From an uncultured bacterium (lineage in GTDB: Bacteria > Hydrothermota > E44-bin80): 64,000 bases of DNA. The stretch covers positions 895 through 64,894 of the forward strand of contig CAYMQB010000010.1 of assembly GCA_964392665.1 (NCBI GenBank). Reading direction: 5' to 3'. Shown piece by piece: positions 11,975 to 31,322 of this stretch. The translations under genes were made by a program, and so were the position numbers. The notes under the pieces were generated by a model. The model was not told the DNA's origin. It made no database searches and was given only the letters and a program-made list of their open reading frames with translations. How positions within the stretch are numbered: position 1 is the first letter of the stretch; each line of letters starts with the position of its first letter.

Positions 11975-12140
11975 ATAGTCGAAGGAATTTATAACTACTT
12001 TCCTTTTTTGTCAAGAAGTAAATGCTCGAAACGCAGGATTAAATTACCGGAAACACATTCTTTTTGCAAGTATTTTCCCTTGACAATGCACAGAATTTGT
12101 GGTAAAGGAGCAGGAGAAAAGAAGTTGTCTGGAGGTAAGA

Positions 12141-13379
12141 TTGAAAAAAATAATGGTAATTATTTTTGCATTGATTCTTTGTAGTTCGGTTCTTTCATAC
12201 TCGCAGGTTTCCGAAATGAGTAAGGAGTATCTGATTATGCAATCGCTGAGGAATGCTTCTCTTGCACCAGTAACATACACTCTTGGTCCCGGGGACGGAA
12301 TTGTATTGAACCTCTGGGGAAACACCAATGCAACATACAAACTTTCGGTATCACAAGATGGTAGCATATTTATCCCAAAATCATCCGGAGTTACCGCTTC
12401 GGCTATTCCTTTGTCAGCATATTCAGGAATTTCATCCTCTGAAAATGTGCCTTCTCTGGGAGAAGTCTATGCAGAAGGACTAACATTAGAGGAATTGAAA
12501 AAGGAGATTGAAAACAGGGTAAGCAAATATTTTCACGGTGTAAATGTTAATGTCTCGCTAACACGTTTGAGGATGTTTTCTGTTTCCATCCTTGGAAGCG
12601 TGAGGGACCCGGGTGTTTATTCAATAACACCCCTGTATAGATTATCAAACCTGCTTGACGTTGCAGGCGGAAATACGCCAACCGGGTCATACAGAAAAAT
12701 AACAATCAAAAGTGCGGATGGTTCATCAAAAACATACGACCTTTATCAGTTTCTATATAAGGCGAATTTAGAGGAGAATCCTTATATCAAAACTGGTGAT
12801 ATTGTGATGGTTCCACAGGCTCTTATGAGTGTTAAGGTAATGGGAAGGGTTTACAAACGAGGGAACTTTGAATTAAGAGAAGGGGAAAGGTTAAAAGATT
12901 TGATTGAATTTGCAAGAGGATTCCAGAGCAGGGGTTCATTGACAAGGCAAATTAAGGTTTATAACATAAAAAGTCCGGATGAAGTGGAAGAAATCGACCC
13001 GTATAAGCTTCTTATCGAGAATGACAGTTTAAGCAACATAGAGCTCAAAACAGGTGATGTTGTGACGGTTCCAACGGAGCCTTTCACAGTAACCGTTGTA
13101 GGTCAGGTAACTTTAGGCGGAAGTTTTGAATATGAGCCAGGAGCAGATTTTAACTACTACCTTGGTCTTGCCGGTGGTTATGGAGAGCGGGCAAACGAAG
13201 GCAATGTTCGTATAACAAGATGGGATGGAACAAGACTGAAATGGAAGACCGGTGTTGAGATAAAACCTGGCGATACAATAGTTATTGGGAGAGCCGAACT
13301 TAAAGGATGGAAAGATTACTTAGAGGTTACACTGAATGCTGCCAACCTACTCTTTATTATCTGGACCGTCTCAAGGTGA
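12141..13379 (+). CDS. wza: Polysaccharide export protein (Wza/KpsD family, Poly_export + SLBB domains)
   Basis: 'LGPGDGIVLNLWGN' Poly_export motif and repeated 'TGD-V-VP' SLBB-like segments. TTG start at 12141 is proposed because GGAGG lies 5 nt upstream and it yields a clean signal peptide 'LKKIMVIIFALILCSSVLS'; the ORF-track ATG is at 12099. Confidence 0.7.
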   Translation: MKKIMVIIFALILCSSVLSYSQVSEMSKEYLIMQSLRNASLAPVTYTLGPGDGIVLNLWGNTNATYKLSVSQDGSIFIPKSSGVTASAIPLSAYSGISSSENVPSLGEVYAEGLTLEELKKEIENRVSKYFHGVNVNVSLTRLRMFSVSILGSVRDPGVYSITPLYRLSNLLDVAGGNTPTGSYRKITIKSADGSSKTYDLYQFLYKANLEENPYIKTGDIVMVPQALMSVKVMGRVYKRGNFELREGERLKDLIEFARGFQSRGSLTRQIKVYNIKSPDEVEEIDPYKLLIENDSLSNIELKTGDVVTVPTEPFTVTVVGQVTLGGSFEYEPGADFNYYLGLAGGYGERANEGNVRITRWDGTRLKWKTGVEIKPGDTIVIGRAELKGWKDYLEVTLNAANLLFIIWTVSR

Positions 13380-13436: not shown

Positions 13437-14450
13437 TCAGTCCTTTGTGTAGTTCCAGTATTCTTTGATATCTCTGCCAATCAATTCCGACAGTCCTCTA
13501 TTTTCCTTAAAAAAAAGTCTTTCTAAGAATCTTCTTGTTTCAATTTTCATTTTTGGGTATGACTTATTACTTGTGAAGTTAAATTTGCAATCGAGTTTGT
13601 CCATTCTTCTCCAGAACCTATTGGGTTTTGTCTTTGATAAATTGGGAAGATGTGAACCAAATTGTTGAGTAACGAGACGTTGAGTTCGGGAAATATAGTT
13701 ATAAAATATTTGGAGTTTTATGTAGCGGGGAATCATTGTTGCATTTTTATGGGTGTCAATTTTACTTATGTCTATGCTCGTCCTTAATCCAAGAAATTTG
13801 CATATTTCATCGATGTTCTGCTGAGTATTTTTTATGAAGTCTTCGAAGATTATAAATTTCATTTGTGAATCCGGAAAATAGTTTTTGTATCTTTCTATCT
13901 GCTGTTTATAAAGACTTCTTTTTAAGAGAGTTCCAGGCATATATCGAAGTGTGTTTTCAAAATCATAAATTGCATGTCCACCACGGACCAGATGCCAATA
14001 GTTAGAATATGTTCGAGAAACTGGGTTTCTTAACATAAATATAAGCTTTACATTGGGTATCAAATTGGCTATACGAGAAGGAGCTTTTGAAGATGCCATA
14101 TAAGTCGTTGAATCTTCACCTATTAATTGCCCTTTTTTCGCTTCCCTAAAGAATGATTTATACCACTTTAGATATTCTTCGAAATTCGTTTTGTAGTCGA
14201 AAAATTGCCATTCCTTAGATGTTTGAACGAAAAAATCGAAATTTTGCTCAATGTCATCTATGTCAAAAAACATTATTTCTCTATTTGGTATAAAAATGTC
14301 TTTGTGTTGGCTTAGAATGTAGTGAAGAGAAGTTGTTCCCGCTTTCATTGCACCAACAATAATAAAGGCAGGCAACCCTTGCCCATCTTTACCAAGCCTT
14401 CTCCCGTACTTTATATTTTTTTCATTCATACAGAATAAGAATTTACACAA
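13437..14450 (-). CDS. Sulfotransferase-domain protein (PAPS-dependent)
   Basis: 337 aa; 5'-PSB P-loop-like 'FIIVGAMKAGTTSLHYIL', then 'RNPVSRTYSNYWH' (3'-PB region); sits inside a polysaccharide locus. Confidence 0.7.
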   Translation of the reverse strand: MCKFLFCMNEKNIKYGRRLGKDGQGLPAFIIVGAMKAGTTSLHYILSQHKDIFIPNREIMFFDIDDIEQNFDFFVQTSKEWQFFDYKTNFEEYLKWYKSFFREAKKGQLIGEDSTTYMASSKAPSRIANLIPNVKLIFMLRNPVSRTYSNYWHLVRGGHAIYDFENTLRYMPGTLLKRSLYKQQIERYKNYFPDSQMKFIIFEDFIKNTQQNIDEICKFLGLRTSIDISKIDTHKNATMIPRYIKLQIFYNYISRTQRLVTQQFGSHLPNLSKTKPNRFWRRMDKLDCKFNFTSNKSYPKMKIETRRFLERLFFKENRGLSELIGRDIKEYWNYTKD

Positions 14451-14522
14451 AAAAATGCTTTTGTCAAGTTCTATCTTGAAATGTAAGCATGAGCTCTATT
14501 ATACGGTTGTCGCAAAAAGGTC

Positions 14523-14551
14523 TTGACTGCATTGAGTTTATGTGTTACTAT
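14523..14551 (+). promoter_or_regulatory. Sigma-70-like promoter for the wzz-wzy-wzx-GT operon
   Basis: TTGACT at 14523-14528, 17-nt spacer, TACTAT at 14546-14551; followed by a ~170-nt leader. Confidence 0.4.
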
Positions 14552-14654
14552 TTATGCGAGTAAAAATAAGGAGAGATGCGTATAGGCTCGTAAATGTTTG
14601 TGTCATAAATGAATTGAGATTTTCGGTTAAATGTGACACATATGTTGAATCGAG

Positions 14655-14696
14655 CCCGGTTGTTTCCGGGGACCCCAAAACGGGTCTCAGTTTTTT
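14655..14696 (+). promoter_or_regulatory. Leader hairpins and intrinsic-terminator-like structure (candidate attenuator) 25 nt upstream of wzz
   Basis: Hairpin 1 is CCCGG-TTGTTT-CCGGG (14655-14670). Hairpin 2 is GACCC-CAAAAC-GGGTC (14671-14686), followed by TCAG and a T6 run (14691-14696). Hairpin 2 plus the T-run resembles a rho-independent terminator lying between the promoter and the wzz start. Confidence 0.3.
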
Positions 14697-14721
14697 ATCA
14701 AAAAGTTGAGTAGGAGAGAAA

Positions 14722-15960
14722 ATGAAAGATAAAGAAAAATTGGATTTCTGGATATTTCTTGAAACATTTTTTAAGTGGTGGAGAGTCATTGTGTTCAATG
14801 TTTTGATAATAACTCTTTTAACAGTGGTCATAAGTCTTGTGCTGCCAAAGAAGTGGGAGGCAACAACTGTCATTTTACCTCCATCGCTATCTTCGACTTC
14901 TTTGAATGTGGAAGATATAGGTTCTACTTATGCATTAAGTTCGATGGCATTATCTGCTCTGCCTGGCATTATTTCGCCTTCCGATATTGTTGCTGGTGTA
15001 TTACAAAGCGAAACAATTAAGAAGAAAATTATTGACCGTTTTAACCTTATGAAAATTTTTAAGGCAAAGAGACTGGAGACGGCATTCAAGAAAGTTGACA
15101 AAATGACGAGTATTTCGGTTACAAAAGAACAAATGGTAAAAATCAAAGTTACAACAAGCAAGCCTCAGCTTTCAGCCGACATCGCAAATGCATATGTAGA
15201 GGAAATAGATAGATTTAACAGGGATGTGTTGATGACAACAGGTAAGCAATTTAGGGTGTTTCTTGAAAAAAGGCTAAAAGAAGCTGAAGAAGAGTTAAAA
15301 ACTGCCGCAGAATCATTGAAGTCATTTCAAGAAAAAAATAAGGTATTTTCACTTGAGGTTGAAACAAAAAAGTCTATTGAGTTGCTTGGCAGTCTTCAAG
15401 GCCAGATAATTGCAAAAAAGGTGCAACTGAATGCTTTGAAAAGTTACTCATATAAAGGTAATCCTGGAATTGTGAAACTGGAGAAAGATATTTCTGCTCT
15501 GGAGAAACAGTTGAAGGAACTTGAGTACGGAAAAGAGGTAAAAGACAAGAAAAAGAGAAAGGACTTTGGTGTTGGTTTTTCTTTTCCATTGAATGAAGTT
15601 CCAGAGATTGGATTAAAACTAACAAAACTTGAGATGAATATTGAGGTGAAAAAAACAGTATATGCACTCTTGGCAGAACAGTATGAAAAAGCGAGAATTC
15701 TTGAATCAAAAGATACTCCAACAATCACGGTTCTTGACAAAGCACGGGCACCCGAGCTGCGAAATTTCCCTAAAAGAAAAAAAATGGTGGTTATCGCTTT
15801 TATACTGAGTGTATTCTATGGATTTGGACTTGCGGTTGTGTGTGAGGTTTTGGAAAGAATTAAAAGTAGCCATGACAAGTATTATAGATTTTTCTCCATC
15901 GTTGACAAATTTCTCACGGAAATAAGACCAATTTTAAGGAAGTTTAGGATAAAAAAATGA
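14722..15960 (+). CDS. wzz: Polysaccharide chain-length determinant / co-polymerase (Wzz/GumC-like, no kinase domain)
   Basis: 412 aa; N-terminal TM 'WRVIVFNVLIITLLTVVISLVL', long coiled-coil periplasmic region, C-terminal TM 'MVVIAFILSVFYGFGLAVV'. Confidence 0.65.
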   Translation: MKDKEKLDFWIFLETFFKWWRVIVFNVLIITLLTVVISLVLPKKWEATTVILPPSLSSTSLNVEDIGSTYALSSMALSALPGIISPSDIVAGVLQSETIKKKIIDRFNLMKIFKAKRLETAFKKVDKMTSISVTKEQMVKIKVTTSKPQLSADIANAYVEEIDRFNRDVLMTTGKQFRVFLEKRLKEAEEELKTAAESLKSFQEKNKVFSLEVETKKSIELLGSLQGQIIAKKVQLNALKSYSYKGNPGIVKLEKDISALEKQLKELEYGKEVKDKKKRKDFGVGFSFPLNEVPEIGLKLTKLEMNIEVKKTVYALLAEQYEKARILESKDTPTITVLDKARAPELRNFPKRKKMVVIAFILSVFYGFGLAVVCEVLERIKSSHDKYYRFFSIVDKFLTEIRPILRKFRIKK

Positions 15961-17423
15961 AACTGGCTGGATTTTGGAATTTCATTTTTCCCTTTGTCCC
16001 CGATAATAGAAAACAAGTATATTCATTTCTTATCTTCTTTATTATCTGTCTTCAGATATGTGCAATTTCACTGCTTTTTCTCGATATCTCTTTTTCTAAA
16101 TTTCTTTTTGTTGCTGGTTTTCTACCGATTCTTATTCTGCTACTTTCGTCTGCGGAGAATTTCTTTATTTTTATTGTGATATACAGTTTCTGCTTTCACC
16201 TTGATTCTTATGCTCATATCTTCAAAGGAGTTATTTCCGTGAGACTATCGTGGAAAAATCTTTATGCTTTATACGCTATTTTTCTTGTATACTGGATTTT
16301 TTCAATAATTTTACGGAAAACAAAAGTGAGAATTGGAGCTTTAGGTTGGTCAATCATTATTTATGTGAGCATTGCTGTTCTTAGTTTTACTTACGGATTA
16401 TTTAACGGATACTATTCAAGCATGGTGGCTCTACAGAGGAGCGAAATATTCCCTCAACTGATGTACCTTGGTTTTTTTGTCTTTATTACTACCAAATTGA
16501 GGCAGATAAACAGAAAAATAATATTTGATTTTTTCCTTTTCGCTTCAACATTTATCGGTCTGCAACTTATTTATGCGTTTTCTAAGAATAGTATAGCTGC
16601 TTTCACGCGGATTAACACAATTACTGTACAGATATCTTTGCTTGCTTTTCCTTATGTCCTTGGTATCTTCTACTTCACAAAAGGAATTAAGAGGAAAATT
16701 ATCTTTCTAATTGCTTTACTCCCTATATCGTTAGGTGTTCTTATTTCACTCCAGAGGAGTCTTTGGTTAGCGGTTATTGTAGTCTTTGTTGGTTCTCTTT
16801 TTATATACTTTTATAAGAAAGGATTTTCTTTTACCAAAATTGTCGGGCTATTAATTGCAGGAATAATAGGTTCTCTCGTTATGCTTACACTTGCGGTCTG
16901 GGGTTTATCAAGGATTACTTCAGGTGCGGCAGTATTGGTTTTATTAAGACGATTTATAAGCCTTTCGAACATTCAATATCTTCAAGTTGATACTTCTGGT
17001 TTTGTTAGGATGACAGAGATAAGGCAAGCGTTATCGAAAATTCATGGAATTCAATGGTTTTTCGGACGAGGAATAGGGGATACTTTCTATTCTTTTCTTA
17101 GAACAAAGACAAAGACTTATTTCGATAATAGTTATGCGTGGGTGTTGTGGAAGATGGGTATCATCGGATTAATATCATTTCTAAGTATGTTTGTTATATT
17201 CTTTCGGAGAGCACTTTTTGTCCTGAGAAAATGTACTGACAAAAACGATTTAATACATACAATGACAATTTCGTTGAATATGCTTGGAATTATGATTTGT
17301 TCCCTTGGCAATGCTTCTTTGATACAGTTCAGATACATAATTGTCTGGTCAGTTTCAATGGCAATGATGGAAATTATTTACAGAAAATATAAATATGAAA
17401 CTTCTGCTAACCTGCTCAAATGA
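15957..17423 (+). CDS. wzy: O-antigen polymerase / ligase-like polytopic membrane protein (Wzy-type)
   Basis: 488 aa with about 11-12 TM helices and a large loop; lies between wzz and wzx; start overlaps the wzz stop by 4 nt. Confidence 0.5.
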   Translation: MKLAGFWNFIFPFVPDNRKQVYSFLIFFIICLQICAISLLFLDISFSKFLFVAGFLPILILLLSSAENFFIFIVIYSFCFHLDSYAHIFKGVISVRLSWKNLYALYAIFLVYWIFSIILRKTKVRIGALGWSIIIYVSIAVLSFTYGLFNGYYSSMVALQRSEIFPQLMYLGFFVFITTKLRQINRKIIFDFFLFASTFIGLQLIYAFSKNSIAAFTRINTITVQISLLAFPYVLGIFYFTKGIKRKIIFLIALLPISLGVLISLQRSLWLAVIVVFVGSLFIYFYKKGFSFTKIVGLLIAGIIGSLVMLTLAVWGLSRITSGAAVLVLLRRFISLSNIQYLQVDTSGFVRMTEIRQALSKIHGIQWFFGRGIGDTFYSFLRTKTKTYFDNSYAWVLWKMGIIGLISFLSMFVIFFRRALFVLRKCTDKNDLIHTMTISLNMLGIMICSLGNASLIQFRYIIVWSVSMAMMEIIYRKYKYETSANLLK

Positions 17424-18432
17424 ACATCCTGGGGTAAAGACTCATCTTCTTCAACTGAAAAAAGTCTGGGGAAACAATTCTGTTTTTTATCCAGTAGAAG
17501 AACTCGTAACTTTTTATCCCGATTATCGAAAAACGAAAATAAAGGTGCCAAAAGTAAAGAGTCTTCTAAAAACAATATCAAGACTTCGTTTCTCCCGCAA
17601 ATGTTTGGATTTTGGAGATAATATCATTTTAGGAAGCTGGAAAGTTTATTATTCTGAAATCATTAAAAAATTAAATAAACTGGGTATACGACCAAGTATT
17701 TTGTGGTGTAGTACTCTTGGGCAAAGTGAAATGACCTGGAAGGCTGAACTCGAGCCGCTTAACAAGATATTTGAGCTGTTAAAAAAGGGAGCCATACGTT
17801 ACTTGCTTGTTCCAGAAAAAACATACGAGTCATTGCGATTCATCAATAATGTTGAATATCTTCCGCATCCTCTTGATTTATCTACACCTTTGAAATTCAA
17901 GGAAATCAATCTCTGGGGGAAAAATATTGACCTTTTCATGGAAGCCAGACCAGGGAAAAATGTTCTTCAGCAGTTGGCAGCACAAAAATACACGAAATCA
18001 GCTTTTCGTTTACATACTAACATAAGAAATGACACAGTTCTCAGTATTGCGCGGAAACTCAATCTTTCGTTTATTCAATATCCTTGGTTAGCGGAAAAGG
18101 AATACTATGGATTAATAAAAGCAATGGATTTAAGTTTGCAGGTAACCTGGACAGAAAGTTTTAACTATGCAGTTTGTGAGAGAATGATTCTTGGAATCCC
18201 AACGCTTGTTTCCTCTGAAATATTTCTTGTTAGCAAAGACGCTTTTCTTAAAAAATATCTTGTTGTTAAAACTCCTGATTCTCCCAGTGTAATCGCAAAA
18301 AAGATAGACTTTCTTTTTCACAATCAAAGCTTAAGAGCGGAAATTAAGCATCGGGGGAAAGAAAGAGTCAAAACTATTGGGAGAAGATATAACAGGATGG
18401 TCAGAGATCAGATAAAAATCCTTTTTAGTTAA
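17395..18432 (+). CDS. Divergent glycosyltransferase-like protein (degenerate GT4/GT1 C-terminal domain)
   Basis: 345 aa; C-terminal 'ESFNYAVCERMILGIPTLVS' aligns with the Glycos_transf_1 'EGFGLV-LEAMA-G-PVIAT' motif; N-terminal half unrecognisable. Confidence 0.3.
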   Translation: MKLLLTCSNEHPGVKTHLLQLKKVWGNNSVFYPVEELVTFYPDYRKTKIKVPKVKSLLKTISRLRFSRKCLDFGDNIILGSWKVYYSEIIKKLNKLGIRPSILWCSTLGQSEMTWKAELEPLNKIFELLKKGAIRYLLVPEKTYESLRFINNVEYLPHPLDLSTPLKFKEINLWGKNIDLFMEARPGKNVLQQLAAQKYTKSAFRLHTNIRNDTVLSIARKLNLSFIQYPWLAEKEYYGLIKAMDLSLQVTWTESFNYAVCERMILGIPTLVSSEIFLVSKDAFLKKYLVVKTPDSPSVIAKKIDFLFHNQSLRAEIKHRGKERVKTIGRRYNRMVRDQIKILFS

Positions 18433-18434
18433 TT

Positions 18435-19889
18435 ATGTATACGGAAATTAAAAAATTAGTAAAACATTCAAGCATATATTCTTTTGGGAGTTTAAGTGGA
18501 CACATTCTCTCGTTTCTTTTGTTACCGGTATATACAAGATTGCTCACGACAGAAGAGTATGGAATTCTTGCAATAATAGGAGTGTTCCGCACAATTGTTC
18601 AAAGAGTAGTAAATCTAGGGACTCAGTCTTCGGTTGTCAAAGTATATTTTGAAGTGGACAACACAGAAAAGAGGAAAGAAGTCACCTCAACTGCTTTTAT
18701 TTTCCTCACAGTTATTGCGGGTATTTTTACACTTTGGTTCTGGCTTTTCAGGGAGAAATTATCAATATTTTTGCTTGATTCACCGCATTTTAGTTTTCTA
18801 TTCTCTTTCGCTCTCATTACATCGTTCTTTTATATAATTAAAACTGTTCCTCTTTCAGTTTTTCGTGCTCAGGGACGAGCATTCACCTACACAATATTTG
18901 CTTTTCTCACGCTTGTTTTGGGACTTTTATTCAATATTATTTTTGTAATTATCTTCCGCGAAAATGTAACAGGGATACTCAAAAGCTCTTTACTCAGTCA
19001 CGTCATAGTTTTTGTACTGGTTCTCATTCCTTTTTGGAAGAACTTTGTGTTTAAGTTCAAAAAAGAATATTTGTCACGAATGTTGAGTTTTGGTTTGCCA
19101 ATAGTTCCGTCAGGCCTTGCTATCTGGATATTGACGCTACTCGACAGATATTTTCTTAAAGTCTTTGCTGATATGGAAACAGTTGGTATTTATTCACTTG
19201 GGTATAAAATAGCAACAATAATGAGTATGCTGGTTATTGTCCCATTCTCAATGGCATGGAGTCCACTTATGCTAAGATGGTATAAGCAGAAAAAGGCGAA
19301 AGAACTCTTTACTAAAACATTTAAGTATTTTTCAGTTTTTGGATTTTTCCTTGTTCTTGCAATTTCACTTTTTTCAAAAGATATTATTCATGTTATGACA
19401 ACACCAGCTTTTTTTGATGCATATAAAATTGTATATTTTATAACTCTTGCTTATCTTTTTCAGGGATTCTATATGATATTTACTACAGGGTGTACTTTCG
19501 TAAGGAAGACCTATTATTTCCCTATTGCCACAGGAGTGGCTGCCGGATTGAACACAATTTTAAACATACTGTTAATTCCAAAATATCAAATGATAGGAGC
19601 CGCAGTTGCGACTGTATTTTCCTATTTGGTTATGACTATACTTATGTATTTATTTTCTGAAAAATATTACCACATTCCGTTTGAATTCAACATTAGCCTA
19701 AAAATTTTCTTTGTTACGACAGTTCTTTATATTGCCGGATTATTCATTGGAGGCAAACTTGTGACTATTGTTGTTATTAAGCTCATGCTTCTTGTTGGTT
19801 TTTTTGTGTTTCTTTTCTTATTCAAGGTTTTTAACAATCAAGAAATTGCTTATGCAAAGGCGTTTTTGAGAAAGAGGAAAAGCGTATGA
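18435..19889 (+). CDS. wzx: Polysaccharide flippase (Wzx, MOP superfamily)
   Basis: 484 aa with 12-14 TM helices; N-terminus 'SIYSFGSLSGHILSFLLLPVYTRLLTTEEYG' is typical of Polysacc_synt/Wzx. Confidence 0.7.
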   Translation: MYTEIKKLVKHSSIYSFGSLSGHILSFLLLPVYTRLLTTEEYGILAIIGVFRTIVQRVVNLGTQSSVVKVYFEVDNTEKRKEVTSTAFIFLTVIAGIFTLWFWLFREKLSIFLLDSPHFSFLFSFALITSFFYIIKTVPLSVFRAQGRAFTYTIFAFLTLVLGLLFNIIFVIIFRENVTGILKSSLLSHVIVFVLVLIPFWKNFVFKFKKEYLSRMLSFGLPIVPSGLAIWILTLLDRYFLKVFADMETVGIYSLGYKIATIMSMLVIVPFSMAWSPLMLRWYKQKKAKELFTKTFKYFSVFGFFLVLAISLFSKDIIHVMTTPAFFDAYKIVYFITLAYLFQGFYMIFTTGCTFVRKTYYFPIATGVAAGLNTILNILLIPKYQMIGAAVATVFSYLVMTILMYLFSEKYYHIPFEFNISLKIFFVTTVLYIAGLFIGGKLVTIVVIKLMLLVGFFVFLFLFKVFNNQEIAYAKAFLRKRKSV

Positions 19890-21232
19890 AAATTTTGCAA
19901 GTCACGATAGGTTTTCCGCCCTATCAAACTGGAGGAACTGACCATCTTTCTTACTTGTTATCTTTTGGACTTGAACAAAAAGATGATGTAGAGTTATATG
20001 TTTTATCTGGAAGGTTGCCGAGAGATTACACGGCTGATATAGAGAGCGAAATATTTGAAAATATGAGAGTTCGGCGTGTTCATTCCTCACGGAGAAAATT
20101 CCTCGAAAGTAGAGTTCCTAATGTAGAAATATCAACCTATAAAAATCTCTACTACGAAGGATTGTTTGAGAAATTTATAAAAGAGCTTAAACCAGATATA
20201 GTTCACTTTCAGCATACAATAGAACTATCTACTTCACTAATACATATCGCCAAACGGTATGCCAATAAAACAATAGTTTCATTACAGGATTTTTGGTATT
20301 TTTGTCCTCGTATTCATTTGTTGAAGCTTGATGGGGCGGTTTGCAGCGGTCCCGAATTCGGATTCAATTGTTACTATTGTAGAACCAAAAATAATGTTAG
20401 TTGTCGAGGATTGCACACATATAAGAGTTCTCGTGGTAAGATTATCTCGAAAATCCCGTTACCTATAAAAACATTCCTGAAAGATAGAATTCAGAGAAAA
20501 CAGTATTATAGAACTGAAAGAGAATACGGTAAAATATTGCCTTTTATTTCCAGATATTATTATGTTATGGAAACATTAAAAAGCGCAGATTATATTCTTT
20601 CGCCATCACGGTTCTTGAAGGAATCATATGTTAAGATCGCGAAAATTAATCCTTCGTCTGTTCTGACGATTCCGCTTGGTATTGTTCCATTTAGCATTAA
20701 GAAGAAAAATTCGTTTTCAAAACCTGTTTGCTTTGGTTTTGCTGGTTCACCTTCAAAGCATAAGGGTTCACAACTCTTATTTGATGTTTTCAAGAAAATT
20801 CCTGAGGATAAGGCAAAGCTTGAAATCTGGGGGAAAGGTTGGGAAGCTTTCTCTAAAAAAGCAAGATTATCAAAAAACATCGATTTTAAGGGAGAATATA
20901 CCCATAGGAATATTGGTGAAGTTTTTTCTTCATTTGATGTATTGGTTATTCCATCTATTTGGGGAGAAACATTTTCCTTCGTTGCTCACGAAGCATTCTA
21001 TGCGAAAATGCCCGTGATAGCTTCAAATATTGGTGTTTTTCCGGATATAATCCAGGACGCGAAGAATGGTTTCCTCTTCAATGTAAACGATAGCGAATCA
21101 CTGTTAAAAAGTATTAATATAATAGTTGAGAATCCTGAGATGATAAAGAAACTGTCAAAAAACATAGAGAAGCCAAAATCTGCAGAAGAATATGTAGATG
21201 AAATTTTCAGTATGTACAAGAACATATTGTGA
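19886..21232 (+). CDS. Glycosyltransferase family 4
   Basis: 448 aa; 'MKILQVTIGFPPYQTGGTDH' N-terminal GT4 motif; C-terminal 'ETFSFVAHEAFYAKMPVIASNIG' is the E-x7-E-like Glycos_transf_1 region. Confidence 0.7.
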   Translation: MKILQVTIGFPPYQTGGTDHLSYLLSFGLEQKDDVELYVLSGRLPRDYTADIESEIFENMRVRRVHSSRRKFLESRVPNVEISTYKNLYYEGLFEKFIKELKPDIVHFQHTIELSTSLIHIAKRYANKTIVSLQDFWYFCPRIHLLKLDGAVCSGPEFGFNCYYCRTKNNVSCRGLHTYKSSRGKIISKIPLPIKTFLKDRIQRKQYYRTEREYGKILPFISRYYYVMETLKSADYILSPSRFLKESYVKIAKINPSSVLTIPLGIVPFSIKKKNSFSKPVCFGFAGSPSKHKGSQLLFDVFKKIPEDKAKLEIWGKGWEAFSKKARLSKNIDFKGEYTHRNIGEVFSSFDVLVIPSIWGETFSFVAHEAFYAKMPVIASNIGVFPDIIQDAKNGFLFNVNDSESLLKSINIIVENPEMIKKLSKNIEKPKSAEEYVDEIFSMYKNIL

Positions 21233-22104
21233 CAATGTTATCCGTAGTTGTTGTAAATTGGAATACGAGAAACATCCTCTTTAAATGTTTACAGTTGTTA
21301 GAAAAAGAAAGGGTTGATGAAATCATAGTAGTTGATAACGCTTCCTCTGATGGTAGTGTGATGATGTTAAAGGATCACTTCGAGGGAATTCATGTTATTG
21401 AGAACAAGAAGAATGTTGGTTTTGCCAAAGCAGCAAATGTGGGAATCAGATATTCCTCGGGCAACTTGATCTTGCTAATCAATTCTGATATATTTGTTAA
21501 AAAGGGTGCGATTGAGCAGATAAAGAGATTCATGGAAAACAATATGGATGTAGAAATTTCTTCTCCTTTGTTATATTCGGAAGATGGGGAGGAAATTGAA
21601 AACCACCGCCCTATTCCAAACTTGACATATATGTTGTTGAATTACTCATTTGCGTTACGACTTTTCCCTTTTTTGATTGTGTTTGTTCCAAAATACCTAC
21701 AGGGGGCTGCATTGGTTTTTAGAAAAACGTTTTTTAAGAAAGTTGGCTTGTTAGACGAAAGATTTTTCTTCTACGCAGAGGATGTGGATTTATGCCTTCG
21801 AACGAAAAAAAAAGGATTAAAAATAGGTATCATACCAACGGCAAAAGCAGTTCACCTTTGTGGTGGTAGTTCAAAAAGAGTGTCAAAAGAAAAGTACTAT
21901 CTCAAGAATATTGAATCGAATCTGCAATTGTTTGAGAAATATTATCCTAAATTAGTAAATTTCTTTATTAAAAAACTTATTATAACCCATTTTGCTATTA
22001 GAAACATTTTCAATTCCTTCATCTCACTTTCATATGTAGATGGAAAGGAGATAGAAAAAAAGATGTGTTTCTACAGACAAATAATGGATATATGCAGAAA
22101 ATAA
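21229..22104 (+). CDS. Glycosyltransferase family 2
   Basis: 291 aa; 'LSVVVVNWNT...VVDNASSDGS' GT2 signature, DxD-like 'NSDIF', 'YAEDVDLCLR'. Confidence 0.75.
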   Translation: MTMLSVVVVNWNTRNILFKCLQLLEKERVDEIIVVDNASSDGSVMMLKDHFEGIHVIENKKNVGFAKAANVGIRYSSGNLILLINSDIFVKKGAIEQIKRFMENNMDVEISSPLLYSEDGEEIENHRPIPNLTYMLLNYSFALRLFPFLIVFVPKYLQGAALVFRKTFFKKVGLLDERFFFYAEDVDLCLRTKKKGLKIGIIPTAKAVHLCGGSSKRVSKEKYYLKNIESNLQLFEKYYPKLVNFFIKKLIITHFAIRNIFNSFISLSYVDGKEIEKKMCFYRQIMDICRK

Positions 22105-23252
22105 AAGTAGCAATGGTTGATGATAGATACAGAATGTATCGAAATGATCTTGTAAAAGCATTAGATAAAACCAGTGTTTCTATAACTGTTATTTCTCCAT
22201 ATAATGATAAGGATTCCGGTATAATAAGGGGGGGTAAATGGCTTACCCCTATCTCGAAATATAAATCCTATCTTAGAGTAAGACCACTGAGAGTGTTAAG
22301 CTACTTTCTTATCAGAGAAAACAATATTTTATTAAGAGATAAATTTATTGATGAATTAAAACCGACAGTAATACATATGCAAGGAATATCCTTTCCATTG
22401 CTTGAATTATTGGTGGGGAAGGCATTTGATATTCCCAAAGTTATAACTGTGCACAATATTTTTCCTCATGAGAAGTCATTATATAATTTGTACAATTATC
22501 CTCAAGTGGTTAAAAAAGCCTATGACAAAATGGGATTTAATGCTTTTGTTGTTCATTCAGAGATACTTAGAAAGAGACTGTGTTCATTTTATCCACCAAG
22601 TTGTCAACGAATAAACGTAATTCCGCACGGATGCAATGGAGAGGTGAAAATTGTGAAAAAGAAGGAAGCGAGAAACGCACTCAATTTGTCTAAAGATATT
22701 TATCCCTTAATCCTATTTTTGGGTGGTATTCGAAGGTATAAAGGATTAAAATATCTCATAAACGCTTTACCTCATCTATTTAAAGATTATCCTAAAGGGA
22801 AACTCATAATTGCTGGAAGGCCTATGTATGAGAAATTCAGCAGATATAATATGATTATAAGGAAGATGAAGCTTGAGGATAAAATAATACTAAGAATTGG
22901 TTATATACCTGAAGAAGAGGCAAACTTTTATTTTCAGGCAGCAGATTTAACTGTTTTGCCATATACAAGATTTACCGCACAGAGCGGAGTACTTCTACGT
23001 GCATACGCTAATCAGTGTCCTGTGGTTGTAACCGATGTTGGTGCAATGGGTGAGTTGGTAAGAGAAGATTCAACAGGTATTGTTGTACCACCAGAATCAA
23101 GCAAAGCCCTCGAAGGTGGCATATTGGAGATCTTATCGGATAGAGTAATGCAGGAGAAGGTAAAACGAAATATGAAAGCCGCTGTTCAAGAGAAGTATAA
23201 CTGGGAAAAAATTGCAGAAGAGACCGTTGCACTATATAATCAAGTCCTCTAA
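22092..23252 (+). CDS. Glycosyltransferase family 4
   Basis: C-terminal 'TAQSGVLLRAYANQCPVVVTDVGAMGELV' Glycos_transf_1 motif; likely start 'MQKIKVAMV' at 22092 (ORF track 22065); contains a G7 tract at 22228-22234. Confidence 0.65.
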   Translation: MQKIKVAMVDDRYRMYRNDLVKALDKTSVSITVISPYNDKDSGIIRGGKWLTPISKYKSYLRVRPLRVLSYFLIRENNILLRDKFIDELKPTVIHMQGISFPLLELLVGKAFDIPKVITVHNIFPHEKSLYNLYNYPQVVKKAYDKMGFNAFVVHSEILRKRLCSFYPPSCQRINVIPHGCNGEVKIVKKKEARNALNLSKDIYPLILFLGGIRRYKGLKYLINALPHLFKDYPKGKLIIAGRPMYEKFSRYNMIIRKMKLEDKIILRIGYIPEEEANFYFQAADLTVLPYTRFTAQSGVLLRAYANQCPVVVTDVGAMGELVREDSTGIVVPPESSKALEGGILEILSDRVMQEKVKRNMKAAVQEKYNWEKIAEETVALYNQVL

Positions 23253-23303
23253 TATTTTGTTTCAAAGGGATTGCAAGGTTAGTGGAATATTGTTAACAAG
23301 ATC

Positions 23304-24590
23304 ATGAAAAATAATGTATTAATAATTGCATATTATTTCCCTCCTGTTGGGGGTGGGGGTGTTCAGAGAACTACTAAATTTGTAAAGTATTTACCTGAAT
23401 TTGGATGGGAGCCGGTTGTTTTAACAGTAAGAGAGGAAGTATATAAAAAGGCAGGTCGTGCTATCGATGTAACTCTACTAGATGATATTTCTCCGAATGT
23501 CCATATTGTGAGAACAAATTCGATTGACCTTGCACGGGTATCTTCCCGAATTAAGACGCAAAACGAATCGAAAATGTTTTGGATGAACTTCAAAAGTTTG
23601 CTGAACAAGAGCAGTGGTTTATTTATAAATCCTGATGCACAAATGCTATGGATACCTGTTGCTGTGAGAGAAGGGCTTAAGATTATTAAGAAATACAATA
23701 TAGGGGTTATCTATTCAACAGGTAATCCTTGGTCAGATCACATTACAGGTATGATACTTAGAAGAATAACGGGAATTCCGTTCGTGGTAGACTATAGAGA
23801 TCCATGGAATGTTAAACCGTATGTTCCGTATTCTTCAAAGATGAGGAAAAGTATTCAGTTTTTCCTTGAAACGATGGTAATGAAGAGCGCAGACCAAGTT
23901 ATTTTTGCAACTAAAGGAATGAAGAGAGATTATAGAGAAGTGTTTGCAAATGGGAGATTTGAAGTAATTCGGAATGGGTTTGATGCGAGCGATTTTACTT
24001 ACGTAAAGCCAAAAAAGTTTCCTGAATTCACTTTTCTTTACGCAGGGAACATCCCGGGATATTTTAAAAGGCCCTCCGGTTTGATCTATGCTATGGCAAA
24101 GTGGCTTGAAGAACATCCAGAGCTGAGGGAAAGGATAATGATTAATTTTTTGGGAAAGAAAGATGAAAGAATGGAGTTGATTGTAAAAGAGAATCACTTG
24201 TTGGATGTAGTTTATTTTCGTGGATACAAATCTCATAAAGAGAGCATTGCTTTTCAACTCGGAGCGGATGTGCTTTTCTTGGCACTTGAAGAAGATATTG
24301 GGAAAACAGCCATTCCAGGAAAATTATTCGAGTATCTTGCATGTGGAAAACCTATACTTGCTCTTGTCCCTCGCAAAGGAAAAGCTGCCGACATATTAAG
24401 AAAAGAAGGAAGAGAGGAGTTTATAGTGAGTCCTGGGAATGTGGAAGCCATCAAAAATGCGATTGCGACACTATATGAGAAGCATAGGAAAGCTTGCTTT
24501 CCTCACCATTCTGTCAAGCATCTTGAAGATTATACTCGAAAAAAGGCAACCGAAAAACTAAGTAAGATATTTTTCAAGTTGAAAAGATGA
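23304..24590 (+). CDS. Glycosyltransferase family 4
   Basis: 428 aa; 'IIAYYFPPVGGGGVQRT' GT4 N-terminus; C-terminal 'GKLFEYLACGKPILAL' Glycos_transf_1-like. Confidence 0.65.
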   Translation: MKNNVLIIAYYFPPVGGGGVQRTTKFVKYLPEFGWEPVVLTVREEVYKKAGRAIDVTLLDDISPNVHIVRTNSIDLARVSSRIKTQNESKMFWMNFKSLLNKSSGLFINPDAQMLWIPVAVREGLKIIKKYNIGVIYSTGNPWSDHITGMILRRITGIPFVVDYRDPWNVKPYVPYSSKMRKSIQFFLETMVMKSADQVIFATKGMKRDYREVFANGRFEVIRNGFDASDFTYVKPKKFPEFTFLYAGNIPGYFKRPSGLIYAMAKWLEEHPELRERIMINFLGKKDERMELIVKENHLLDVVYFRGYKSHKESIAFQLGADVLFLALEEDIGKTAIPGKLFEYLACGKPILALVPRKGKAADILRKEGREEFIVSPGNVEAIKNAIATLYEKHRKACFPHHSVKHLEDYTRKKATEKLSKIFFKLKR

Positions 24591-24650
24591 ACCTGTGCAA
24601 TTTTAACACAAAAATATAATGAAATCAGACTATTAAAGTGGAAAGATGCT

Positions 24651-25853
24651 GTGCTAAATAAAATTGATGAGAAGACATTGTCTCTGCAGATTTCAAAGGT
24701 TACATACAATGGCAGTGGGACAAATAAGAGTGTAGAAACCAACAAAACGGTAATTTTGCATATTATTACTAATGTTAACATTGGAGGTGCGGAAATAACT
24801 TTGCTAAGAACAATGAAGCATTTTGATAAAGGCAAATTCAATCATATTGTGCTAACGCTTCTTCCAAAAGGATATTTGCTGGAAAATTTCAAGAAAATTG
24901 GAGTCGAGGTTCATTGTCTTGGCATGAAAAGTCGCTTCGATATCTTAGCGTTATTCAGATATTTTCGTTTCTTAAGGAAAAAAAAACCCAAGATAGTTGT
25001 AGCTTACCTTTTTCATGCGCTCAGTTTTGCTGTAATAGGAAAGATATTTTATTCAAGAACCATTTTGATTCACTATAAACGTAGTATTACTTTTTCTACA
25101 ATTTTTAGAGATAAAATGGGAAAGGTTTTCAGTTTTTTTATTGACTATCTTATTGGGATTTCCAAGGGGGTTGTTGATTCCGAGCCAAGAAAATTTCAAT
25201 ACGGGTTCAATAGCTTCATTGTTTACAATGGCATTGAACTACCCTCAATTACTTCGTCGAATCAAGAAAGGACACAACATCAAATCATCATTGGAACAAT
25301 TGCCAGACTAAATCAAGCAAAGGGTTTACGTTACTTAATTGAATCTGCACGAAGAGTAAAGCTGAAAAAGCCGAGTGCCAAATTTCTTATCATCGGTGGT
25401 GGTGAACTATATAGTAGTTTAAGAGAAGCAATAGAGAGAAAAGGGCTTGAAAACTACGTAAAATTAGAGGGAGAACAAATAAATACTGAGCGCTATTTCA
25501 GATTGTTTGATATCTTTGTTCTACCATCATTATATGAGGGTCTTGGCAATGTTCTTCTTGAGGCAATGTCCTATGGAATACCGGTTATAGGAACTAATGT
25601 TAGTGGAATAAACGAAATTATTAAGAATAGTGAAAACGGACTGTTAATAGAACCGAAATCTTCCGAAGCAATAACAGAAGCAATAGTCAGACTAATTGAA
25701 AAGCCAATCTTAAGACAAAGGCTGGGACAGAGAGGTAGAAAAACTGTTGAAAGAGTTTTTACAATCGAGAGAACAGTTAATAGACTGGAATCAATATTTG
25801 CACAAATATTAGAAAAGGATTTAACCTCAAGCAAAGGAATGGGAAATGGTTAA
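24651..25853 (+). CDS. Glycosyltransferase family 4
   Basis: 'ILHIITNVNIGGAEI' and 'EGLGNVLLEAMSYGIPVIGTNVSGINEII'; contains an A9 tract at 24978-24986. Confidence 0.7.
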   Translation: MLNKIDEKTLSLQISKVTYNGSGTNKSVETNKTVILHIITNVNIGGAEITLLRTMKHFDKGKFNHIVLTLLPKGYLLENFKKIGVEVHCLGMKSRFDILALFRYFRFLRKKKPKIVVAYLFHALSFAVIGKIFYSRTILIHYKRSITFSTIFRDKMGKVFSFFIDYLIGISKGVVDSEPRKFQYGFNSFIVYNGIELPSITSSNQERTQHQIIIGTIARLNQAKGLRYLIESARRVKLKKPSAKFLIIGGGELYSSLREAIERKGLENYVKLEGEQINTERYFRLFDIFVLPSLYEGLGNVLLEAMSYGIPVIGTNVSGINEIIKNSENGLLIEPKSSEAITEAIVRLIEKPILRQRLGQRGRKTVERVFTIERTVNRLESIFAQILEKDLTSSKGMGNG

Positions 25854-26820
25854 GAGGTATTTAAATAACAGTAGAACAAGGGTTTTGGTGACAGGGGCTG
25901 CAGGTTTCATAGGTTCTCATCTCTGCGAAAAACTGTTAAAAAAAGGACACAAGGTACTAGGAATAGATTGTTTTACGGATTTTTATCCGAAGGCAATAAA
26001 GACAAGAAACTTGCAGACTTGCCTAAAAAACCCAAATTTTGAATTTCGTGAAACTGATATATTGAGTTTGACCTCTATTGATAAAGATATTGGATATATA
26101 TTTCATACTGCTGCCCAAGCGGGCGTAAGAGCAAGTTGGGGGGGGAATTTTGATATCTATACAAGAAATAATATCCTTGCTACTCAGCATCTCCTTGAAT
26201 TATCCAAAAACCATAAAAAGGTTAAGAAAATCATTTATTCTTCATCTTCATCAGTCTATGGTGATGCAAAAATATTGCCTACAAAAGAAGATACTGTGCC
26301 TAAGCCTGTTTCTCCTTATGGAGTTACAAAACTTGCTGGTGAACATCTGTGTCGCCTGTACAATAAAAACTTTGGTGTTCCCGTTGTTTGTCTCAGATAT
26401 TTTACAGTTTTTGGACCACGACAGAGACCGGATATGGCTTTTTACAAATTTATAAAATCCGCAATTAACGGTAAACCCATAATTATTTATGGGGATGGCA
26501 GACAATCGAGGGATTTTACTTATGTTTCGGATGTCGTAGCAGCAAATATTCTTGCAATGCAAAAGGACACTGAAGATACCATTTTTAATATCGGAGGAGG
26601 TAATTATGTGACAGTTAATGAGACGATAGAACTCCTTGGAAAATTGTTGAAATTACCTGTCAATGTTAAGTATAAAGAAAAAGAAAAAGGTGATGTAAGA
26701 GATACAAGTGCAGATATTAACAGGGCAAAACGAGAACTGGGGTTTAATCCAAAATACGATTTGAACTATGGTTTGGAAAAGGAATTAGAATGGATAAAAA
26801 AAATATATAACATATCCTAA
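25846..26820 (+). CDS. NAD-dependent epimerase/dehydratase (extended SDR; UDP-sugar 4-epimerase / WbpP-like)
   Basis: 324 aa; Rossmann 'VLVTGAAGFIGSHLCEKLL', catalytic 'SPYGVTKLAGE' (YxxxK); contains a G8 homopolymer at 26138-26145. Confidence 0.75.
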   Translation: MVKRYLNNSRTRVLVTGAAGFIGSHLCEKLLKKGHKVLGIDCFTDFYPKAIKTRNLQTCLKNPNFEFRETDILSLTSIDKDIGYIFHTAAQAGVRASWGGNFDIYTRNNILATQHLLELSKNHKKVKKIIYSSSSSVYGDAKILPTKEDTVPKPVSPYGVTKLAGEHLCRLYNKNFGVPVVCLRYFTVFGPRQRPDMAFYKFIKSAINGKPIIIYGDGRQSRDFTYVSDVVAANILAMQKDTEDTIFNIGGGNYVTVNETIELLGKLLKLPVNVKYKEKEKGDVRDTSADINRAKRELGFNPKYDLNYGLEKELEWIKKIYNIS

Positions 26821-26839
26821 GCTTTGAATTGTTTTCAAA

Positions 26840-28003
26840 ATGAACAAAAAAAAGATAAATGTTATTCATATAATAACTGAGTTAGCCATTGGTGGGGCAA
26901 CCGAAAATACCATAATTACTGCTTCTTCTTTGAATAGAAGAAAATTCAATACTATTATTGTCTCTGGGAAAGAAGAACAAAATGACGATCTTGTAAAACG
27001 TGTTAAGCAGGAGGAAATCCCATATTTTGTTAATAAAAACCTTTGCAGGTTAATAAATCCGGCAAGGGATTTACTATGTTTATTGACGCTTACCAAATTT
27101 ATCAGGGAACACAAAGGGATTGTTGTCCATACACATAGTTCAAAAGCAGGTATCATTGGTAGGATAGCAGCATTTTTGGCCGGGAGCACAATTATTATCC
27201 ATACAGTTCACGGGTGGAGTTTTCATCAATATTGGAAGAGATGGGAAATGTATATTTTTATTCTTTTAGAAAGATTTGTAGCACGATTTACCGATAGGAT
27301 TGTGTGCGTTACCACAATGGATATTCTTAAAGGATTAGCAAGCAATATTGGAAGAATTAATCAATATGGTGTGATTCGCAGTGGATTTGATATTAAGAAA
27401 TTCCAGGGTAACAAAGATACTACAGACAAAATGAAGAAACAATTTGATTTTCCCTTGAATCAAAGGATTGTGGGAACAGTTGGAAGATTATCACAACAAA
27501 AAGATCCTGAAACATTTGTTAACGTAGCGCACTTGGTAAGTAAGATAAGGAAAGATGTGATATTTGTTTTTGTTGGAGAAGGAGAGTTGCGGAAAAAGAC
27601 AGATAATCTGATACAACATCTCAAAATGGAGAAATATATCTATCTTCTGGGTGCACAGAAGAATGTTGAAAAGATTTTTCCACTCTTCGATGTATTTCTT
27701 CTAACATCATTATGGGAAGGTTTACCAAAAGTTATTCCACAGGCTATGGCATCGGGTATACCAATAGTTTCTACTGCAGTCGATGGTGTTAAAGAAGTGA
27801 TTAAAAATGAAACAAATGGTTATCTTTCAAAACCCGGAGATGCTGAATCTCTTGCAGAAAATGTAATTAAACTACTTAACGATAAAGAGAAATCCAGACG
27901 ATTTGTATACAACTCAAAACGCTTAATAAAACAGTTTGACTCTAAATTAATGGTAAAACAGATTGAAAGAACTTACAGTGATTTAATTAGCAAGAAAACA
28001 TAA
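26840..28003 (+). CDS. Glycosyltransferase family 4
   Basis: 387 aa; 'INVIHIITELAIGGATE' and 'EGLPKVIPQAMASGIPIVSTAVDGVKEVI'. Confidence 0.7.
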   Translation: MNKKKINVIHIITELAIGGATENTIITASSLNRRKFNTIIVSGKEEQNDDLVKRVKQEEIPYFVNKNLCRLINPARDLLCLLTLTKFIREHKGIVVHTHSSKAGIIGRIAAFLAGSTIIIHTVHGWSFHQYWKRWEMYIFILLERFVARFTDRIVCVTTMDILKGLASNIGRINQYGVIRSGFDIKKFQGNKDTTDKMKKQFDFPLNQRIVGTVGRLSQQKDPETFVNVAHLVSKIRKDVIFVFVGEGELRKKTDNLIQHLKMEKYIYLLGAQKNVEKIFPLFDVFLLTSLWEGLPKVIPQAMASGIPIVSTAVDGVKEVIKNETNGYLSKPGDAESLAENVIKLLNDKEKSRRFVYNSKRLIKQFDSKLMVKQIERTYSDLISKKT

Positions 28004-28009
28004 GCAATA

Positions 28010-28433
28010 ATGAATAAACCTATTATTCTTGTTGTTGGGGCAAGACCCAATTTTGTTAAGGCTTCTCCTCTCTTCAACGCAATGAGAGAAAGAAAGATAA
28101 ATACTATTCTAATTCATACGGGTCAACATTATGATTATGAATTGTCCAAAACATTCTTTGAGGATTTTAGCCTGGGTAAACCCGACATAAATCTTGAGGT
28201 GAGTTCTGGAAATCATGGTGAACAGACAGGTAGGACTCCGGAGTTACGATAGAAGAATGCCAGAAGAGATAAACCGTGTGCTTACAGATGCTATTGCGGA
28301 TTATTTATTTACGCCTTCGTTGAATGCGAATGAAAATCTTAAGAAAGAAGGTATTGCGGATGAACAAATCTTTTTTGTAGGGAACATTATGATAGATTCG
28401 CTGGTAAAACATCTACCGCTTATGTGGACATAA
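28010..28433 (+). pseudogene. Decayed UDP-N-acetylglucosamine 2-epimerase (wecB-like) remnant: N-terminal ~150 aa only, internally deleted and frameshifted
   Basis: Two short ORFs, 28010-28252 and 28215-28433. The first, 'ILVVGARPNFVKASPL...IHTGQHYDYELSKTFF...NLEVSSGNHGEQTG', matches the WecB N-terminus. The second, 'LRSYDRRMPEEINRVLTD', matches WecB at about residues 125-180. About 45 aa between them are missing and the whole C-terminal domain is absent; ~55% identical to the intact convergent wecB. Confidence 0.6.
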
Positions 28434-29585: not shown

Positions 29586-29676
29586 ATAATTGTTATCACG
29601 CCATTCAGGTCAAGTGGATTGTTTTCCTTTTTCAACATCAAATGAGGGGTATTGTTGAAGTAAGTGTTGTGAGAGA

Positions 29677-31311: not shown

Positions 31312-31322
31312 AAAAGCACTCC

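Follow-up and report, generated by a model that had tools for sequence, protein, structure and literature searches.

The question raised by this locus is whether a single putative sulfotransferase (ST) gene, lying between genes for the export and the polymerisation of a polysaccharide, serves to sulfate that polysaccharide. The locus lies in a stretch of 64,000 nucleotides that was analysed as a whole and is called the window below. A sequence-only reading had taken the ST as the product of positions 13437-14450 of the minus strand. These coordinates, the strand and the 337-aa open reading frame, which starts with a TTG at 14450 in the mechanical ORF list, were recovered as described, but the gene is probably 13437-14429 and its protein 330 aa long, starting at an ATG at 14429. 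The ATG was preferred over the TTG because more than 20 public contigs (NCBI, JGI and Logan) carry a gene call for the identical 330-aa protein (P0001), because the N-termini of all homologs align from this position, and because the TTG overlaps a promoter-like site. The features of this region are:

13437..14429, minus strand: ST coding sequence, stop codon included, 330 aa from the ATG (Pfam, PDB relatives, AlphaFold2 model and Foldseek)
14430..14450, minus strand: in-frame TTG extension of 7 codons, probably untranslated (gene calls, homolog N-termini and the overlapping promoter-like site)
14440..14467, minus strand: sigma-70-like promoter candidate, putatively of the ST gene (TTGACA, 16 nt, TAAATT; consensus scan)

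The promoter candidate comes from a sigma-70 consensus scan that overall did not rise above the shuffled expectation; a CTTGACA box is also present upstream of the ST gene in three related loci (L003, L088 and L089). The GC content of the ST gene, 0.334, equals that of the adjoining wzy and wzx genes. No signal peptide, transmembrane helix or hydrophobic segment was found in the ST protein, whose maximal 19-residue Kyte-Doolittle mean is 1.26, so the enzyme is predicted to be soluble and cytoplasmic.

Two Pfam models matched the protein above their curated cutoffs, Sulfotransfer_3 (PF13469) with an E-value of 1.5e-20 (74.9 bits for a gathering cutoff of 27) and Sulfotransfer_1 (PF00685) with an E-value of 1.9e-18 (67.2 bits for a gathering cutoff of 22). 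The top match of a phmmer search against the PDB was 3rnl, a sulfotransferase of Alicyclobacillus acidocaldarius (E 2.2e-27); the human heparan-sulfate (HS) 3-O-sulfotransferases 3-OST-1/3/5 gave E-values of about 1e-14, the N-sulfotransferase (NST) domain of NDST1 4.6e-13, and the curacin CurM sulfotransferase was far weaker (8e-4). The P-loop GAMKAGTTSL, which had been picked out from the sequence, aligns with GVKKGGTRAL of 3-OST-3 and corresponds to the 5'-phosphosulfate-binding (5'-PSB) loop. The 3'-phosphate-binding (3'-PB) region proposed along with it was located at RNPVSRTYS, as LRNPVSRTYS aligns with the 3'-PB motif VRDPVTRAIS of 3-OST-3. The Glu of LIGEDSTTY (E105) aligns with the catalytic Glu of the same enzyme. 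In an alignment of 20 homologs, 44-86% identical, residues K29, T32, G104-E105, R134, S142 and H146 (P0001 numbering) are invariant.

The AlphaFold2 model computed on this 20-homolog alignment has a pLDDT of 87 and a pTM of 0.87. When it was compared with the PDB by Foldseek, the best 50 matches were all PAPS-dependent sulfotransferases, led by 3rnl (E 2e-13), NDST1 and the 3-OSTs, with TM-scores, normalised to the target, of 0.70-0.79. The E-values of cytosolic SULTs, tyrosylprotein sulfotransferases (TPSTs) and polyketide sulfotransferases trailed those of the HS sulfotransferases by 4 orders of magnitude or more. By sequence and predicted fold, the ST can thus be assigned firmly to the PAPS-dependent carbohydrate sulfotransferases, in the HS NST/3-OST-like branch; this grouping rules out membership in a non-sulfotransferase P-loop family and upholds the identity first read from the sequence. 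The human 3-OST-1/3/5 and the NST domain of NDST1 are its best characterised relatives in sequence and fold; the Lys of the 5'-PSB loop, the catalytic Glu and the Arg and Ser of the 3'-PB motif are present in them as well, and they act on a polysaccharide acceptor. However, they are only 20-22% identical to the ST and are Golgi-lumenal, whereas the ST is predicted to be cytoplasmic and carries an extra C-terminal region of about 100 residues. This region (residues ~230-330) is conserved among the homologs, is modelled with high pLDDT and reaches past the matched HS sulfotransferase chains of ~255-270 residues; judged from alignment and model, it is a family-specific feature. The closest solved structure, 3rnl, comes from structural genomics and has the same set of motifs, and its entry description names no function.

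Two other readings of the protein can be weighed on these data. One is that a sulfotransferase-like P-loop protein without catalytic activity, or in decay, is encoded here, or that the ORF is spurious. The search of NCBIfam, in which no model matched the ST protein, agrees with it, and nothing else does. The invariance of all cofactor-binding and catalytic residues, the high confidence of the predicted fold, the identical protein on more than 20 contigs and a dN/dS of 0.18 relative to the 86% identical ortholog all contradict it; the ST is under purifying selection, and a dead or spurious gene is scarcely credible here. The other is that a secreted or envelope protein is sulfated on tyrosine, as by the RaxST/TPST type of enzyme. 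TPST structures do appear among the weaker Foldseek matches (E ~1e-5, TM-score ~0.4), but they lie five orders of magnitude behind the HS sulfotransferases, no candidate peptide substrate or secretion partner is encoded nearby, and glycan genes make up the genomic context throughout, which renders this reading highly improbable.

The genomic context agrees with the placement given in the sequence-only reading, that is, between wza and wzz and divergent from the wzz operon: the gene to the left matches Poly_export/SLBB and that to the right Wzz/GNVR in Pfam. The genes of the polysaccharide cluster and its neighbourhood are:

12099..13379, plus strand: Wza/outer-membrane export (OPX) protein (Pfam Poly_export, SLBB and SLBB_2; NCBIfam EpsE/pepcterm_export-like matches below cutoffs)
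14722..15960, plus strand: Wzz/polysaccharide co-polymerase (PCP) that lacks a kinase domain; its gene opens the operon (Pfam Wzz and GNVR; NCBIfam below cutoff)
15957..17423, plus strand: Wzy-like polymerase or O-antigen-ligase-like membrane protein (Pfam Wzy_C, E 3.6e-5, below the gathering score)
17395..18432, plus strand: conserved 345-aa protein, weakly GT1-like (Pfam Glycos_transf_1, E 7e-4, below cutoff)
18435..19889, plus strand: Wzx-type flippase (Pfam Polysacc_synt and Polysacc_synt_3)
19886..28003, plus strand: five GT4 glycosyltransferases, one GT2 glycosyltransferase and one NAD-dependent sugar epimerase/dehydratase (Pfam and NCBIfam), in seven ORFs at 19886-21232, 21229-22104, 22065-23252, 23304-24590, 24651-25853, 25846-26820 and 26840-28003
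28413..32423, minus strand: adjoining amino-sugar precursor genes, encoding WecB, a fusion protein and a DegT aminotransferase (Pfam and NCBIfam)

The ST gene is convergent with wza and divergent from the wzz operon, to which a 292-bp spacer leads, and the genes 3' of the PCP gene are tightly packed on the plus strand. The orthologs of the Wzy-like protein in L003 and L088 also match Wzy_C. The 345-aa protein is syntenic in all relatives and has no NCBIfam match. WecB, a UDP-GlcNAc 2-epimerase, reached 343.7 bits with the NCBIfam wecB model (cutoff 210); the fusion protein, which joins a UDP-GlcNAc 3-dehydrogenase-like domain to a hexapeptide acetyltransferase, and DegT stayed below the NCBIfam cutoffs. 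The domain content of these three proteins suggests acetamido-sugar precursors, and their genes would belong to the same pathway as the cluster. No priming phosphoglycosyl transferase was seen in the 64-kb window.

The arrangement of the locus was then compared with that in its relatives. The order Wza -> <- ST <-> PCP-Wzy-GT-Wzx-GT4 is kept at ST identities of 86% (L003-L005), 74% (L088) and 57% (L089), and around this core the outer flanks vary. L113, with an ST identity of 59%, keeps only the side from the ST to PCP-Wzy-GT-Wzx-GT4 and has a methyltransferase gene and a PF00884 sulfatase-family gene at the position that Wza takes in the window; the cluster of L089 contains a heparinase II/III-like gene. 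Alanyl-tRNA synthetase (AlaRS) homologs in these lineages are 85, 73 and 62% identical to that of the window, the 62% one being on the L089 contig, so by this comparison of sequences the ST diverges at about the pace of AlaRS. The window's AlaRS itself matches a protein with the label candidate division WOR-3 at 70% identity; of the other named matches, at ~47%, most are WOR-3 as well. Given these matches, and the T9SS C-terminal sorting domains and a PcrB gene in the window, the organism is assigned to WOR-3 with moderate confidence.

More distant homologs were also found among genes for glycans. In L090 (54%), a cluster of the ABC-transporter type includes a second ST, Wza and a Wzc-like PCP, and in L112 and L114 the homolog has glycosyltransferases and a flippase for neighbours. 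The species representatives of GTDB contain 448 ST relatives in many phyla, the best being 54% identical; the rarity that the sequence-only reading implied is not borne out, since sulfotransferases in bacterial polysaccharide clusters are less rare than that. Forty-three of the GTDB loci had full 10-kb flanks, and the following counts on them are descriptive: one or more glycan-pathway genes in 35/43 (within 2.5 kb of the ST in 30/43), at least two glycosyltransferases in 27/43, an export or polymerisation gene in 25/43 and a second ST in 12/43. Neighbours were counted with iterated profile HMMs, as single-sequence phmmer undercounted Wzx, PCP and OPX genes.

This context bears on a further reading, in which the ST is an active PAPS sulfotransferase for another acceptor (a glycolipid, an LPS or lipid A sugar, the nucleotide sugar pool or a small metabolite) and its position between wza and wzz is historical. 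The ST is a transcription unit apart from the operon, transcribed alone from the opposite strand, which counts against a tailoring role and in favour of this reading. Of the 43 full-flank GTDB loci, 8 showed no glycan gene close to the homolog, and on the Anabaena cylindrica plasmid pANACY.04 a 48.5% identical homolog is accompanied only by sugar-nucleotide enzymes (DegT, an epimerase and GalE), export genes being absent. Moreover, rhizobial and mycobacterial relatives sulfate lipo-oligosaccharides and glycolipids. Sulfation of this kind by rhizobial and mycobacterial enzymes is mentioned in PMC8205485. Against such an acceptor, the divergent pair of ST and PCP operon is found in every relative examined down to 57% identity, with Wza in 3/4, while the outer flanks change; the closest structural relatives work on polysaccharide chains; and homologs co-cluster with Wza, PCP and Wzx. 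We consider sulfation of another acceptor unlikely. The modification of the polymer repeat unit, to which the sequence-only reading pointed, gains support from the conserved link with Wza, PCP, Wzy and Wzx, which is typical of the wider family too.

As PAPS is the sulfate donor, its supply was considered. The window ORFs of at least 150 aa include no gene for APS kinase, ATP sulfurylase, CysD/N, CysQ or a sulfate transporter; for CysC and CysN-D this absence had been stated when the ST was first pointed out. It counts, as does that of a priming phosphoglycosyl transferase, against the tailoring role proposed below, for which a PAPS supply is presumed. In a published survey of 181 WOR-3 MAGs, sat, cysC and cysH were all recorded; 11 MAGs have the three of them, other MAGs single ones, and sulfite reductase is missing (PMC12542636). 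These genes are compatible with PAPS being made for sulfation, and the survey is silent on the window's own genome.

In other genomes the two functions are found side by side. In an uncultured Melioribacter MAG of the FCB superphylum (L042), a 42% identical ST homolog lies in one co-directional cluster with the order TauE-Wza-Wza-PCP-CysC-CysD-CysN-ST-ST-CysQ-ST...Wzx, in which CysN has an APS-kinase domain and CysQ is a CysQ-like phosphatase. L037 has a cluster that resembles it, and in L021, of the Acidobacteriota, a fusion of transporter, ATP sulfurylase and APS kinase is encoded 7 kb from the ST. In these genomes the genes for making PAPS, transferring sulfate, recycling PAP and exporting the polysaccharide form a single physical unit. 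No other comparison supports the function proposed for the ST of the window as strongly as this co-clustering. L042 and the window have the same ST family, Wza, PCP, Wzx and the FCB superphylum in common; L042, however, has a TauE-family transporter, several STs and PAPS genes in a single co-directional cluster, whereas the window has none of these, and the cysC, cysD/N or sat, and cysQ genes that stand in the ST cluster in L042 and L037 have no counterpart in the window. Only L021, L037 and L042 were counted as having PAPS-gene neighbours. Matches to the CysC profile in L052, L057, L072, L076 and L082 (~608 aa) also match an ABC ATPase profile and were taken as false positives, and weak CysD-like or CysN-like matches in L038 and L056, being unconfirmed, were left out of the count.

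Considering the enzyme family, the fold, the catalytic residues, the purifying selection, the synteny and the co-clustering of homologs with PAPS-synthesis and export genes, the ST is probably a PAPS-dependent tailoring enzyme of the adjacent Wzx/Wzy polysaccharide, which would sulfate the repeat unit before it is flipped. The glycosyltransferases would build the repeat unit on undecaprenyl diphosphate at the inner membrane face, and the ST would move the sulfate of PAPS to a hydroxyl or amino group of this unit before the Wzx flip. Since PAPS is cytoplasmic and the ST has no export signal, sulfation would have to precede flipping. Wzx would then flip the sulfated unit, Wzy and the PCP would polymerise it, and Wza would export a sulfated capsule or exopolysaccharide. 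For the acceptor, we infer that the undecaprenyl-diphosphate-linked repeat unit is the most plausible and a nucleotide sugar less likely. The relatives of HS type and the adjoining UDP-GlcNAc-modifying genes give, by analogy, a hint of an amino-sugar acceptor. The polysaccharide of the cluster is, in our view, likely to be sulfated, and the organism probably makes a sulfated slime, capsule or exopolysaccharide.

Among bacterial systems of this kind, only the xss/synechan cluster of Synechocystis has been dissected genetically, and it is the closest one that has been tested. In Synechocystis sp. PCC 6803 two sulfotransferases lie inside a Wzx/Wzy cluster, and XssA is needed for the sulfated exopolysaccharide (EPS) (PMC8205485). 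Of the two, XssA (sll5042) is the closer homolog of the ST, 27% identical across 198 aa (E 5e-23), against 24% (E 3e-8) for XssE. Both loci are of the Wzx/Wzy type and have an ST among PCP, flippase, polymerase and many glycosyltransferases. However, xss has two STs, the XssQ/R/S regulators and its OPX gene elsewhere, whereas the window has one ST, with Wza adjoining; phylum and habitat also differ, and sulfation of the polymer is a prediction in the window. A regulatory module of the XssS/XssR/XssQ type, a two-component system with a STAND activator, was sought through its domains; the window ORFs of at least 150 aa contain neither NACHT/STAND nor histidine kinase or response regulator domains.

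Similar proposals have been made for bacteria outside the cyanobacteria. WpsH, encoded in the Wzx/Wzy cluster wps-1 of Actinoplanes missouriensis, is HS-sulfotransferase-like, and sulfation in that system is unverified (PMC13390465). Pontiella has putative glycosaminoglycan sulfotransferases, with an ST in a glycosyltransferase cluster, and sulfated exopolymers were detected chemically (PMC7356697); an equivalent prediction exists for MAGs of Shark Bay mats (PMC9723792). In Actinoplanes and Pontiella, as in the window, an HS-sulfotransferase-like gene in a bacterial polysaccharide cluster has been read as a sign of sulfated EPS. These two belong to other phyla and are cultured, whereas the organism of the window is known from metagenomes only, and the likeness of their STs to that of the window is one of description. 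A literature search on WOR-3 together with sulfotransferase found no paper.

Bacterial sulfated polysaccharides have been stated, in several recent papers, to be confined to cyanobacteria (PMC8205485, PMC13390465). The locus and the family survey give genomic evidence for PAPS-type carbohydrate sulfotransferases in Wzx/Wzy, ABC and Wza/PCP clusters of many phyla, with a WOR-3-like lineage as the present case. If the polymer is indeed sulfated, it would add to the pool of sulfated organic matter in sediments, and the enzyme would be a compact bacterial one of HS type with which sulfated glycans could be made. Predictions of this sort already exist for other bacteria; the present one fits their pattern and changes no concept.

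The spacer between the ST gene and the PCP operon contains a further conserved element:

14523..14721, plus strand: promoter and conserved structured leader with an intrinsic terminator (14669-14688 and a T-run), conserved in five lineages

Conservation of the 200 bp 5' of the PCP gene is unexpectedly high: it extends to all five lineages, even where the proteins are only 57-59% identical. Read from 5' to 3', the element has a promoter CTTGACT(17)TACTAT and an AAGGAG block. These are followed by TATAGGCTCGTAAATGTT(TG)TGTGTCA, a block of 27 nt in which L113 differs by one C-to-T change, and by a long hairpin in which GGCUCG pairs with CGAGCC and UGUGUCA with UGACACA and of which the apex varies. 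A small CCGG hairpin comes next, and last an intrinsic terminator with compensatory changes, whose U-run immediately precedes the Shine-Dalgarno sequence and the PCP start codon, the ATG at 14722. From these sequence features the element looks like an attenuator or antitermination leader of the polysaccharide operon. It is single-copy in the window. Rfam returned nothing for the window at gathering thresholds, and for the leader no match at E<=10. An ops/JUMPStart identity of the conserved block was set aside, the match being poor by eye. A metagenome scan with an 18-mer of the leader gave 19 loci, of which 3 are real, all from the 86% relative, and the remainder are chance matches.

Taken together with the lineage, these data allow a wider and more tentative proposal, which we regard as possible rather than probable. 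WOR-3 bacteria may make, in anoxic habitats, an HS-like, amino-sugar-rich sulfated exopolysaccharide by way of a Wza/ST/PCP module that is conserved in the lineage. In that case sat and cysC, as reported in WOR-3 MAGs that lack sulfite reductase (PMC12542636), would serve sulfation and not sulfur assimilation, and the operon would be gated by an undescribed leader RNA that contains a terminator.

The polysaccharide operon that begins with the gene for PCP, the Wzz-type co-polymerase without kinase domain, is preceded by a conserved structured 5' leader, which is found in the window and in four loci from relatives that carry the predicted PAPS-dependent sulfotransferase (ST):

Window, 14523-14721, plus strand: leader
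L003, ~9707-9911, minus strand: leader
L088, ~9582-9800, minus strand: leader
L089, ~9647-9860, minus strand: leader
L113, ~5674-5900, minus strand: leader

The leader contains a sigma-70-like promoter, a near-invariant block of 27 nt, TATAGGCTCGTAAATGTT(TG)TGTGTCA, with a single C-to-T difference, in L113, as well as a long hairpin and a small CCGG hairpin. It is closed by an intrinsic terminator with its U-run, immediately before the PCP start codon. A search of Rfam with the leader gave no match, even at a threshold as loose as E<=10. The leader may control the polysaccharide operon through attenuation or antitermination.

The gene content around ST and PCP varies among these loci. In L089 (1161-3104) a heparinase II/III-like gene lies within the cluster. 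In L113 (6977-9043) a methyltransferase gene and a PF00884 sulfatase-family gene adjoin ST, in place of the Wza gene of the window. Among the ORFs of at least 150 aa in window positions 12099-32423, we found neither a priming phosphoglycosyl transferase, of the Bac_transf or WecA/MraY type, nor a tyrosine kinase that could act with PCP, which has no kinase domain of its own. Genes for both functions must lie elsewhere, or else proteins that escaped recognition supply them, for instance the product of the conserved 345-aa ORF at 17395-18432. The same region encodes a fusion protein of 544 aa:

Window, 29677-31311, minus strand: GFO/IDH-type UDP-GlcNAc 3-dehydrogenase-like domain joined to a NeuD/PglB-like hexapeptide N-acetyltransferase

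Its gene is flanked by DegT aminotransferase and WecB genes, an arrangement suggestive of a compact pathway that would yield a 2,3-diacetamido sugar.

Among the more distant loci with ST homologs, L042 (CAZEBL010000011.1, 1115-14948, from an uncultured Melioribacter MAG) is a single co-directional cluster encoding a TauE-family transporter, two Wza, PCP, CysC, CysD, CysN, at least three sulfotransferases, a CysQ-like phosphatase and Wzx. It is a candidate self-contained sulfated-polysaccharide locus that would itself provide PAPS and recycle PAP, and a cluster resembling it is present in L037. In an Acidobacteriota MAG, a long ORF lies ~7 kb away from the ST homolog:

L021, 16982-20815, minus strand: ORF of 1277 aa

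Its domains, a CitMHS-type transporter with TrkA_C, a PUA-like domain with ATP sulfurylase, and APS kinase, may belong to a fusion of a sulfate-uptake protein with a PAPS synthase, or the ORF may run through neighbouring genes.

Further genes of the window are the following:

3110-5128, plus strand: diguanylate cyclase with three GAF domains, ~9 kb from the polysaccharide cluster
32639-33379, minus strand: PcrB-family prenyl-glyceryl-phosphate synthase
38238-39653, minus strand: protein with T9SS C-terminal sorting domain
49265-51787, plus strand: TMEM260-like protein O-mannosyltransferase with TPR repeats
61290-63776, minus strand: protein with T9SS C-terminal sorting domain

The synteny of the diguanylate cyclase gene is kept in the relative whose ST is 86% identical, and through this enzyme a c-di-GMP tie to polysaccharide production is conceivable. 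The TMEM260-like, T9SS-sorted and PcrB proteins are consistent with an organism of the FCB superphylum (WOR-3-like).
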